Shown here piece by piece: positions 19,612 to 35,319 of a stretch of 54,688 nucleotides of DNA. The translations under genes were made by a program, and so were the position numbers. Location: the IMG/VR virus record IMGVR_UViG_2541047774_000008, positions 1-54,688 of that record, one strand, 5' to 3'. Under the pieces are notes generated by a model. The model worked only from the letters and a program-made list of their open reading frames with translations. It did not search any database and was not told the origin of the DNA. How positions within the stretch are numbered: the first letter of the stretch is position 1; every line of letters starts with the position of its first letter. The DNA is from a virus (Duplodnaviria > Heunggongvirae > Uroviricota > Caudoviricetes).

Positions 19612-20358
19612 TTAAAGCGAACGGATGCCCACGCTGACCAGATGTTCAGACAGATCCAGCTCCGGTTCACCACCATTGACCAGCATCCGGCTCATTGCTG
19701 TAAACATCGCAACAGGGCCGTCGATTTTGGCTTCCAGCGTGGATTTATTCGGGAAGATATTGTCGTTTTTGTCCGGTTTTACCGTAACGTTAGACATCAT
19801 CCAGTTCATGACCGGATGATTGCTGTGATGGAAACGCCCGGCATAGACCAGTGATTCCGTTTCCTTCATGGCCTCTGACAGATTGCGAACCGTCTGCGGA
19901 ACCTCCACCAGCGGTATCCCTTCTTCAGCCAGTGCCAGGCTGAACTGCATCGCGCTCCACGGGTCAAATCCCAGTTCCCTGAGGTTTTCACCACCAATCC
20001 ATTCCAGTAAGTCACTTTTTATCTGAGCATGATCGATAACATCACCATCCGTCAGAATCAGCTTATCCATCTCCGCCCACTTCCGGTAAAGTTCTGCCTG
20101 CTGCCGCGAGCATCGTTCCAGCCGTCCTTCCGGAAGCCAGAATTTAAAATCGGCATGAACATGCCCGTTATCCGTTCGCCAGAGTTTTGCCGCCGCACAG
20201 ATATCAATCTTATGAGCAAGGTCAACGCCGACCCACATGGGATACGTTTTCAGCTCATGTCGTGGGGCAATGTATTCGCACTTCTCCCACTTAATCATGT
20301 CCATCCAGGCAGACTCTGCTGTTACCCACACATTCATGTGTTTGGTAAGAATATTTCA
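19612..20358 (-). pseudogene. 3' fragment of prophage terminase large subunit gene (nuclease domain), separated from its 5' part by the island
   Basis: 241-aa ORF (19612-20337) plus in-frame upstream codons to the stop at 20356-20358 (NILTKHMNVWVTAESAW...) align with the C-terminal half of the island TerL. Confidence 0.8.
20342..20348. repeat. left copy of 7-bp direct repeat TTGGTAA at the island boundary (putative att core)
   Basis: Identical heptamer at 35313-35319; in both copies the embedded ACC codon is in frame in its terL fragment. Confidence 0.6.
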
Positions 20359-20423
20359 AGTTTTTTAAAATCACCTGTATATCAATCATTTAACATGAAA
20401 AAACAGTCTTTATAAATCATCGA

Positions 20424-20444
20424 GCAATACACAGCGCAATACAC
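20424..20444. repeat. 21-bp subterminal direct repeat GCAATACACAGCGCAATACAC (putative integrase arm-type site), left end
   Basis: Tandem GCAATACAC pair; near-identical copy (one mismatch) at 35162-35182. Confidence 0.6.
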
Positions 20445-20588
20445 GTATCTGTATTGTTTTAATGCTGATACACACCGTTTTTTGATACAGTGATTCGACC
20501 TACCATCGCGAAGCATTTTTTATTTCTTGTGTGTAACAATCTGACGAGGTGAGCACTCAAAGAGATAAGAGGCAGTAGAAATTTCGAT

Positions 20589-20790
20589 CCCCCCCCTGAA
20601 TGCAATTTTTCGTATATATATATACAAAACAGTGCGGGTTATGCGGGTTAGCGGGTTATCTTCGCGTGCTAAGTATTTTTTACTCTTTAATATCAATACG
20701 TTAAAAAACAACGTATCTAAATATCAGCCAGAATGTAACCCGCAAGACATTCAAAATAACCCGCAAACACCACTCAAATAACCCGCAAAA
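20589..20790. repeat. iteron / AT-rich region downstream of island terL (candidate cos or ori)
   Basis: C8 tract 20589-20596, (TA)n 20613-20624, three GCGGGTTA repeats 20634-20658, palindrome ATACGTT-N7-AACGTAT, three inverted TAACCCGCA repeats at 20736, 20757 and 20779. Confidence 0.55.
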
Positions 20791-20867
20791 ACATCCCTGA
20801 AAGTGGGTGCCGATAATACTGAAAATTTATTCCATTAAATGAGCATTGTCCTCTCTCATCCATTCCG

Positions 20868-33718: not shown

Positions 33719-33952
33719 TCAGGGTTTCCATTCACCCTTTACCCATTCCAGCACCTCAGATAAGCGCCAGACTTTTGTTTGTGGGCCAATACATATTTTT
33801 CGTGGAAATTTTCCTTCCTTTTCAAGTAACGATCTGTGTCTCCTGCCAAGAGCGGTTAACCATGCACATTCATCTTCCTTAATCATCCTGTCGATTGTTT
33901 CATCATTTTCAAGTTCTTCACGCGTAACTATTTGAATCATTACTGTCACCAC
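33719..33952 (-). CDS. alpA: AlpA-family transcriptional regulator
   Basis: 77 aa with AlpA-like HTH (AWLTALGRRHRSLLEKEGKFP); immediately downstream of int. Confidence 0.65.
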   Translation of the reverse strand: MVTVMIQIVTREELENDETIDRMIKEDECAWLTALGRRHRSLLEKEGKFPRKICIGPQTKVWRLSEVLEWVKGEWKP

Positions 33953-35141
33953 TAATTTGCTTATTCAGATAGTCGTACCACCAGTTCATAGCTTCTTTTT
34001 TTCTGTCCATATACTGGCTTCTGTTATAAACCCCGGCAACACCGCCTAATGTGTGCCCAAGCAACTGTTCAACCACATTATGTTCAAAACCATGATCACT
34101 TAGTTTTGTGGCAAACACTCTTCGCATATCATGCGCCGTCCATTTCTCCGAGTGTTTCATCCTTTTCCATGTCTTACCGATAGTTACGCTTGCCGTACAC
34201 TGACGCATATCAAACCCAATCACATTTTCTTTGTTACCTGTTATTTTTTTTAACGTAACTAACCAGTTAAACATGCCATCAGGAATCGGTCTGATTATTT
34301 CCCTGCCATTTTTGCTATGATCAGCGGGAACGCGCCATAATTTCTTATCAAAATCCCACTCTACCCAGGACGACAGTAATACTTCTGACAGTCGACAACC
34401 AAAAACTACCAGGAAACGTAAAATAATTCGGTTTTCATATGATAATTCGTGATTGTCATAATCAGTATTAATACTTCGCCATAAATCTCTGATTTCATCA
34501 TCTGTTAAAACCCTGCTTCTTCGCGCAGACTTTTTTCCCACATCACAGACCTCAAGATCATCAATTTCATGACTAATCGCGTATTTTCTTACCCTACAAA
34601 ATTTAAGCGCCTGTTTTGATATACGCAACAAAGCTCCGGCCTGTACAGGTGCTACTTTTTTTATTTTGTCAAAACACTTGATCCACATAGATATAGAGCA
34701 ATCACTAAGTGGTACATGACCAATCACCGGATAAATATGTTTACCAAAGCACTGCCTGATATGTTCTGCTCCCCTACGCTTATCCATTGCATAATTATCA
34801 AGCCAGTATTCAAGTGCCTCACGAACGGTAACAGGTTGCAAGGTGGCTTCCCGTTCAATTTTTATCTGAATCCGTGGATCTCTGCCCTCCGCAAGCCAGG
34901 TTCGACACTGATCGCGCATCTCTCTCGCTGATTTGAGACTCAGATCAGGATATTTTCCAAGTGTCAGCCAGATGGGCGCGGTTCCCCTTCCCGCCAGTCT
35001 GTAAAAGAAAACAAAACTAACACATCCGTATTTACTGACCCGTACCGAAAGCCCGTTACCATCAGCGATGGTTTCCTGCCTCTCACTCCTGCGCCCAAGC
35101 AGGGAACGAAGTTTTTTATCGCTCAGTTTGTTTAGCGCCAT
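33918..35141 (-). CDS. int: tyrosine integrase, P4-like (island)
   Basis: ORF 33918-35177; first ATG at 35141 (MALNKLSDKKLRSLLG...); C-terminal catalytic region with R, H-x-x-R and Y; sits at the island right end. Confidence 0.85.
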   Translation of the reverse strand: MALNKLSDKKLRSLLGRRSERQETIADGNGLSVRVSKYGCVSFVFFYRLAGRGTAPIWLTLGKYPDLSLKSAREMRDQCRTWLAEGRDPRIQIKIEREATLQPVTVREALEYWLDNYAMDKRRGAEHIRQCFGKHIYPVIGHVPLSDCSISMWIKCFDKIKKVAPVQAGALLRISKQALKFCRVRKYAISHEIDDLEVCDVGKKSARRSRVLTDDEIRDLWRSINTDYDNHELSYENRIILRFLVVFGCRLSEVLLSSWVEWDFDKKLWRVPADHSKNGREIIRPIPDGMFNWLVTLKKITGNKENVIGFDMRQCTASVTIGKTWKRMKHSEKWTAHDMRRVFATKLSDHGFEHNVVEQLLGHTLGGVAGVYNRSQYMDRKKEAMNWWYDYLNKQISGDSNDSNSYA

Positions 35142-35161
35142 GTGATTTATAACCCGTTTTT

Positions 35162-35182
35162 GCAATACACAGTGCAATACAC
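35162..35182. repeat. 21-bp subterminal direct repeat GCAATACACAGTGCAATACAC (putative integrase arm-type site), right end
   Basis: Direct repeat of 20424-20444 with one mismatch; just upstream of the int start. Confidence 0.6.
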
Positions 35183-35312
35183 AAATGATGAAAACAGCCA
35201 GAACCTTCCAGAAAAAACAAAAACGACGAACAAGAAAAAATCTTTTTCTTTCATTTGGTTACTAAAAAAATCAGGACAGGTCGCACTGTTGTTACGGCGT
35301 GATGTTACTTTC

Positions 35313-35319
35313 TTGGTAA
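35313..35319. repeat. right copy of 7-bp direct repeat TTGGTAA at the island boundary (putative att core)
   Basis: Matches 20342-20348; lies within the FFTKK codons of the terL 5' fragment. Confidence 0.6.

Follow-up and report, generated by a model that had tools for sequence, protein, structure and literature searches.

A satellite island inside the large-terminase gene of a prophage and its place among helper-embedded elements

The split terL gene and its empty site

The window analysed here is the whole 54,688-nucleotide stretch of the IMG/VR virus record IMGVR_UViG_2541047774_000008 (Caudoviricetes). It holds an E. coli prophage whose large-terminase gene, terL, is divided by an island of 14,964 bp, and it is this island that concerns us. 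As the first-pass annotation of this DNA had proposed, the island is bounded by two copies of TTGGTAA on the + strand, at 20342–20348 and 35313–35319. Read on the - strand, the helper terL starts at 36340, runs to ...SARVNFFTK (the 5′ part ending ...ARVNFFTKK) and meets TTACCAA at 35319–35313, after which unrelated sequence follows. The second TTACCAA, at 20348–20342, is followed by ...HMNVWVTAESAWMD and the remaining C-terminal region of TerL down to 19612; the 3′ part reads ...TKHMNVWVTAESAWMD. The gene is disrupted without a replacement segment: the island-side sequence past the core does not continue TerL, and an intact terL appears only upon deletion of the island.

Removal in silico of 20349–35319, that is, the island and one repeat, yields a continuous open reading frame (ORF) of 585 aa, MAKVADG...GIRSL. 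Pfam TerL_ATPase covers its residues 112–268 and TerL_nuclease its residues 283–563, with the junction at residues 342/343. The earlier proposals that the joined flanks encode an in-frame TerL and that precise excision would restore the helper gene are thus borne out at the level of the sequence. The insertion point lies about 60 positions into Pfam TerL_nuclease, which would fit position 246 in the single Terminase_1 profile used formerly. It had further been stated that the joined protein aligns without gaps to the island's own TerL; this holds around the site (FFTKHMNVW against MLTKRFNIW), but overall the two proteins are 32% identical with 37 gaps.

A 7-bp repeat by itself could be due to chance; what settles the matter is the empty site. 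Along all of its 800 nt, the joined junction matches intact genes annotated 'terminase large subunit' at 100% identity, and at least 80% of it is covered in 905 of 5,426 complete E. coli genomes. The uninterrupted junction is also found in 11 sequenced Escherichia phages of 38–41 kb, phi467, Evi and PhiR49_2 among them. Occupied sites recur as well, the left junction being present at full length in 34 complete genomes and the right junction in 36. The island is therefore real, precisely bounded and recurrent. Among sequenced phage and virion records, island DNA gave only distant matches (about 75% identity) to the capsid and portal genes of other small elements.

Integrase, arm sites and identity with published elements

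Satellites that reside in prophage late genes were described as helper-embedded phage-inducible chromosomal islands (HE-PICIs) by Tommasini, Mageeney & Williams (2023, NAR Genom Bioinform; PMC10111431). Their catalogue comprises 491 satellites, distributed over 14 sites that lie in nine prophage late genes (PMC10111431). Two of these sites, A:Terminase_1:132 and A:Terminase_1:245/246, belong to terL-cognate genes (PMC10111431). The supplement lists E. coli elements named Eco####.15.A_Terminase_1_246 with the att identity 'ttaccaa', one of which, Eco1012.15.A_Terminase_1_246 (KE699959.1/1542225-1527255), is 14,971 bp long and sits in a helper at tRNA-Ser, Eco1012.55.S (PMC10111431).

The window island together with one core is also 14,971 bp long, and the core plus about 140 nt each of attL and attR are identical to the published alignment rows of Eco1012.15. 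As length, tRNA-Ser helper and att text all match, the window appears to contain the catalogued element itself or a sibling of identical length. With the A:Terminase_1:246 group as a whole it has in common the target gene, codon position, core, arm motif and its spacing, integrase clade, the order of the four zones (integration, Bro, replication, late) and an orientation matching that of the interrupted late gene; we found no structural difference.

The integration machinery leads to the same assignment. A doubled motif, tgTGTATTGCantgTGTATTGCa, is unique to HE-PICI attP sites, where it occurs twice in the same orientation, each copy a set distance from the core (PMC10111431). In the island, two co-oriented copies of the doubled TGTATTGC motif flank the attP core: in the whole 54.7-kb window, where 0.03 matches would be expected, the arm motif TGTATTGCnnnnTGTATTGC is present in exactly two places, one at either end of the island and both on the - strand. 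We reconstructed attP for the island and for 11capE, the founding HE-PICI from E. coli NRG857c (L003). The half-sites lie at -98/-86/+135/+147 from the core centre in the island and at -100.5/-88.5/+133.5/+145.5 in 11capE, so that the motif copies are spaced 233 and 234 nt apart, respectively. The motif was not found in an empty-site helper, the AR_0077 prophage (L002). In a pairwise comparison, the island integrase is 50% identical to that of 11capE, with 0 gaps over 398 aa (E 3e-144). The integrases of the A_Terminase_1_246 elements fall in an 11capE-related clade of the published tree (PMC10111431) and, judged by pairwise identity, the island integrase probably belongs to the same clade.

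The island's own terL has a related site. In the codons VEMLTKRFNIW (21590–21622, - strand), the position homologous to the helper attB reads CTCACCAAG; its TCACCAA is one mismatch from the TTACCAA core, and the flanks differ. Such a mismatched attB-like site agrees with the island avoiding integration into itself, a point also made by the HE-PICI authors for 11capE.

The arrangement, the site and the 7-bp core were thus already published in 2023, and the first-pass annotation's suggestion that a satellite attachment site inside a helper terminase gene is a novelty does not stand, given the published A:Terminase_1:132 and A:Terminase_1:246 sites (PMC10111431). We found no later papers on terminase-site embedded satellites in the literature searched. 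As the arrangement and its implications are already in the literature for this exact site, the value of the case lies in confirmation and correct labelling, not in discovery. Nesting also confuses annotation: the Prokaryotic Genome Annotation Pipeline (PGAP) calls the two terL halves pseudogenes (in a relative, the equivalent 3′ fragment is labelled 'terminase TerL endonuclease subunit, missing N-terminus'), and islands with tail or lysis genes at their flanks can be rejected by satellite finders.

Genes of the island and its helper

From its right (5′) end, the island carries, on the - strand, int, two AlpA genes and a Bro-N gene, then a divergent YlcI/YnfO gene, an Icd-like gene, several small ORFs and a DUF4222 gene. 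These are followed by a RepA-type helicase, the single-stranded DNA-binding protein (SSB), PerC, a low-GC ORF in the opposite orientation, capsid, S78 protease, portal, Ad1, HNH, a 62-aa protein, small terminase (TerS) and TerL (Table 1). The int, alpA and replication genes are co-oriented with the helper terL. All island genes are full length, with lengths equal to those in relatives. The closest island is that of E. coli 2014C-3075, at 89% coverage. No tail, tail-fibre or lysis families were found among the Pfam and PHROG matches of the island ORFs.

Table 1. Features of the island, its attachment sites and its helper (window coordinates)
Feature	Position	Strand	Basis or remark
attL core (TTACCAA on -)	35313..35319	-	joins helper terL 5′ part to island int end; same 'ttaccaa' block in A_Terminase_1_246 HE-PICI supplement (PMC10111431)
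attR core (TTACCAA on -)	20342..20348	-	joins island terL end to helper terL 3′ part; 'ttaccaa' listed in supplement (PMC10111431)
Helper terL 5′ fragment, ATPase domain, residues 1 to ~343	35320..36340	-	99% identical to residues 1-346 of intact 585-aa L002 TerL
Helper terL 3′ fragment, most of nuclease domain, residues ~343-585	19612..20341	-	Pfam domains of joined ORF; comparison with L002 TerL
Doubled arm motif TGTATTGCnnnnTGTATTGC, int-proximal copy	35162..35181	-	half-sites +135/+147 from core centre in attP
Doubled arm motif TGTATTGCnnnnTGTATTGC, distal copy	20424..20443	-	half-sites -98/-86 from core centre in attP
Tyrosine integrase, 407 aa, P4 type	33918..35141	-	Arm-DNA-bind_3 + Phage_integrase
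AlpA-family regulator/excisionase 1	33719..33952	-	Phage_AlpA, E 1.9e-9
AlpA-family regulator 2	33377..33685	-	Phage_AlpA, E 7e-10
Bro-N domain protein (Bro zone)	32741..33319	-	domain match
YlcI/YnfO-family small protein, start probably internal	31746..32090	+	PHROG match, annotation of a relative
Icd-like/repressor-like small protein, start uncertain	31355..31741	-	phrog_6196, phrog_1743; L001 counterpart labelled 'host cell division inhibitor Icd-like' by PGAP
DUF4222 protein	30401..30700	-	domain match
RepA-type helicase (AAA_25), replication module	28989..30404	-	relatives annotated 'helicase RepA family protein'
SSB	28282..28707	-	domain match
PerC-family transcriptional activator, accessory gene	27985..28278	-	Pfam PerC, E 3e-35
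168-aa accessory ORF, low-GC patch (GC 0.42)	27148..27654	+	phrog_5789 (unknown function), E 3.5e-86, end-to-end match
Island HK97-fold major capsid protein	25716..26861	-	37% identical to helper capsid protein
Island prohead serine protease (S78)	25106..25684	-	domain match
Island portal protein	23890..25107	-	domain match
Island head-tail adaptor (Ad1/gp6-like), sole head-tail joining gene found	23598..23897	-	Pfam/PHROG match
Island HNH endonuclease, packaging accessory	23158..23598	-	domain match
Island small terminase (Terminase_4/P27 family)	22513..22869	-	domain match
Island large terminase, 553 aa, intact ATPase and nuclease domains	20868..22529	-	domain match, alignment
Helper small terminase	36340..36822	-	100% identical to L002 TerS
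Helper head, head-tail and tail genes	1..19645	-	all full length against intact-terL relative
tRNA-Ser(cga), helper chromosomal attachment site	53708..53797	-	fits helper name Eco1012.55.S
Helper integrase gene	52585..53655	+	near window end, beside tRNA-Ser

Island proteins are only 26–40% identical to their helper counterparts. At the nucleotide level, blastn detected no similarity between island and helper at E 1e-3; just scattered 13-mers are common to both, and the HNH–terS intergenic regions do not align. A cos or packaging signal common to island and helper was rejected on these grounds, and the lack of nucleotide similarity implies that the island has its own packaging specificity.

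Several accessory features deserve mention. The 168-aa ORF is placed between the replication and capsid modules, the position at which capsid-forming PICIs (cfPICIs) are said to hold immune systems. PADLOC gave no match for it or for the other accessory genes, and the 168-aa ORF is also without a Pfam match. No Rfam match at the gathering score was found inside the island for immunity RNAs of the C4/isrK or P4 CI-like kind, which have been reported for some HE-PICIs in the Bro zone. PerC/Pch proteins activate virulence genes of the locus of enterocyte effacement in enteropathogenic and enterohaemorrhagic E. coli. A PerC-family gene is also carried by a sibling island integrated in yifB (L004, discussed below).

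With the island taken out, the helper is collinear with the prophage of strain AR_0077, whose 585-aa terL is intact and which lies between tRNA-Ser(cga)/mtfA and its tail-fibre end. The left part of the helper encodes portal, protease, capsid, connector, head closure, gp10, gp17, tail tube, tape measure, L, K, I, J, Lom and tail fibre. All morphogenesis, lysis and regulatory genes that we tested are full length, and most late proteins are 99–100% identical to those of AR_0077. A related composite, L001 (NZ_OZ282453.1), adjoins potB, as opposed to tRNA-Ser in the window, which indicates that the island entered helpers at different chromosomal loci. Within L001, a stop interrupts the helper tape-measure gene (L001 9811–13038) and a frameshift the island SSB gene (L001 27884–28308); some helper/HE-PICI composites are therefore decaying.

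The helper also carries cargo. An ORF for a GNAT-family acetyltransferase (37774–38259, +) is found within a low-GC (0.39) insert that separates the helper HNH from the lysis genes; the insert is missing from the otherwise collinear AR_0077 prophage and is likely a moron. Further cargo comprises a cluster of four tRNAs (40318–40627, -; Gly-tcc, Thr-tgt, Lys-ttt and a CAT-anticodon tRNA given as tRNA-Ile in the AR_0077 annotation), the hokD/sok toxin–antitoxin pair (44042–44367, -), the QueH epoxyqueuosine reductase (44435–45154, -) and the DicF small RNA with dicB (49231–49282, +).

Proposed life cycle and comparison with known systems

Taken together, the island is very probably an HE-PICI of the A:Terminase_1:246 site group, with a late zone of the cfPICI type, residing inside the co-oriented terL of a lambdoid, HK97-like prophage at tRNA-Ser. 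The assignment draws on the 7-bp core bounds, the terL restored by exact removal, the recurrent empty and occupied sites, and the arm motifs and integrase of HE-PICI type. The first-pass annotation thus described the anatomy accurately, including a co-oriented, integrase-bearing satellite-type island. Its interpretation, a terminase on/off switch as well as a parasite, is partly supported: regulated gene integrity serving the satellite is the model of the HE-PICI authors and covers the idea that terL is off while the satellite is embedded and that excision restores the gene (PMC10111431).

How such an element might behave is suggested by 11capE, for which quantitative PCR and deep sequencing showed that the composite excises first and replicates, after which the satellite excises precisely, reaching 42–98% of composite copies at 2–3 h (PMC10111431). 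By analogy, after SOS induction the helper-plus-island composite would excise from tRNA-Ser and replicate. Q-dependent late transcription of the helper would then read through the lysis genes, HNH, terS and the terL 5′ fragment into int and alpA, both of which are intact; no terminator-like site was found on the - strand between the truncated terL and the int end. Int and AlpA would excise the island at TTACCAA, rebuilding the helper terL, and the island would replicate by means of its own RepA and SSB. It might then build small HK97-type capsids and package its own DNA with its own HNH, TerS and TerL, whereas head-completion and tail parts would come from the helper. Nesting in a helper late gene would place the satellite under cis control by helper replication and late transcription, and would in turn make helper gene expression depend on satellite excision. 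As the helper would be unable to package until excision, the satellite would delay and probably lower helper yield.

The truncated terL ORF runs on for 54 codons across attL and the two int-proximal half-sites; its stop (35147–35149) lies 5 nt before the int ATG (35141). With so short a distance, int could conceivably be translationally coupled to helper late expression, a notion to which we attach little weight. As a general HE-PICI feature, coupling is ruled out by 11capE, where the corresponding gap is 132 nt. Nor is it general for the A_246 elements, since in Arsenophonus A_246 the frame, as read from the attL text, closes about 19 codons past the core.

A more tentative idea, which we regard as possible but rather doubtful, is that terL-site HE-PICIs constitute a functionally distinct subtype, in which a capsid-forming satellite with its own complete terminase disables the packaging motor of the helper while embedded. 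If so, from late-gene onset until excision the helper would produce tails, lysis proteins and proheads that it could not fill, while the satellite machinery could package. In the published work, late zones are regarded as 'captured late genes', and the specific disabling of a helper terminase by a capsid-forming satellite with its own is not taken up (PMC10111431).

Some points weigh against the HE-PICI life cycle outlined above. In the island, neither a second head-tail connector nor a head-closure gene could be recognised, and compared with model cfPICIs it may therefore depend on a larger number of helper proteins for joining tails. The sole induction experiment concerns a capsid-gene HE-PICI, 11capE, and virions were not recovered (PMC10111431). 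In addition, the authors consider many HE-PICI helpers truncated and possibly abandoned (PMC10111431), although the window helper looks complete. Nothing in the sequence contradicts the classification itself.

Other explanations were also considered. Should a single insertion have inactivated the phage, leaving a stranded, decaying composite, both partners would now be immobile and vertically inherited, and there would be no switch. The low occupancy (just 34–36 of about 935 genomes with this terL), the two lesions of L001, and the truncated helpers and missing virions reported by the HE-PICI authors (PMC10111431) all fit such a history. In the window, however, every island gene and helper late gene is full length. 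Moreover, occupied helpers reside at both potB and tRNA-Ser and their islands have differing replication modules (DUF927, primase or RepA), which argues for repeated, recent integrations, and precise excision has been measured for the related 11capE (PMC10111431). We therefore consider a stranded composite very unlikely. An assembly or scaffolding chimera of a chromosomal cfPICI with a prophage terL has a vanishingly small chance of being correct. Both junctions recur at base-pair precision, not only in the 34 (left) and 36 (right) independent complete genomes but also in the published catalogue; and both the duplicated 7-bp core and the geometry of the arm sites are as integrase-mediated insertion would produce them.

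An alternative in which the satellite acts as a weapon deserves somewhat more credit, yet we judge it improbable. Here terL would be kept broken after induction, for example because only a minority of copies excise; the helper would donate only tails and lysis, and satellite particles alone would emerge. With its own complete HNH/TerS/TerL set and no sequence in common with the helper, the island would not need helper TerL, cfPICIs need only tails from their helpers, and excision of 11capE involved only 42–98% of composite copies, and only after composite replication (PMC10111431). Nevertheless, any excision that frees the island also regenerates an intact terL, so that release of the satellite and knock-out of the helper run counter to each other, and uninterrupted versions of the phage are far commoner than occupied ones.

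For comparison with cfPICIs we used the 11-component SatelliteFinder model and the Penades-lab criteria. Within the ~10–18 kb size range, the island has int, an AlpA-type regulator, a replication module (RepA helicase, not primase) and its own capsid, prohead protease, portal, HNH, TerS and TerL, and it is without tail or holin/lysis genes. In place of the adaptor and connector expected, we found only the Ad1/gp6-like adaptor, and no homologue of the helper head-closure protein in the island, which would make it a 10-of-11 'Type B' element. The first-pass description of a full cfPICI complement is therefore right as to the genes it listed and the lack of tail and lysis genes, but slightly overstated as to head-tail joining. 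On paper the island is cfPICI-like; strict membership fails on the second head-tail gene alone, the defining behaviour of the class, small capsids of its own and tails alone from the helper, being experimental. The model cfPICIs EcCIEDL933 and EcCIGN02175 are likewise about 15 kb long, carry int, AlpA, a replication module, capsid, protease, portal, adaptor, HNH, TerS and TerL in the same characteristic order, and are without tail or lysis genes. They differ in occupying chromosomal sites and in having both adaptor and connector, whereas the window island has an integration module for prophage late genes and the adaptor only.

The sibling island mentioned above (NZ_CP128931.1 4812756–4833840) matches the window island in its replication and packaging modules (68% of the query aligned at 96.5% nucleotide identity) but has a different integrase. 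It is inserted in chromosomal yifB, which is split into two pseudogene fragments, and has a Fic-family gene beside its terL end. The presence of another integrase on like modules shows that the integration module is exchangeable, having been swapped onto a common cfPICI-type chassis.

11capE, at site E:Phage_cap_E:80, and the window island are both inside and co-oriented with a helper late gene, and both carry an Icd-like gene, a YlcI/YnfO-family gene, DUF4222 and SSB. However, 11capE splits a capsid gene, is 11 kb long, has only capsid and decoration genes in its late zone and no terminase, and presumably relies on the cos machinery of its helper. Unlike 11capE, the window island has the full capsid, portal, protease, HNH, TerS and TerL set. 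The arrangement also resembles regulated gene integrity, or active lysogeny, at comK, sigK and mutL, where an integrative element that brings no replacement segment splits a gene, which is made whole again by precise excision. Unlike in those cases, the gene interrupted in the window is that of the helper phage, and the regulation would serve the satellite, not the cell.

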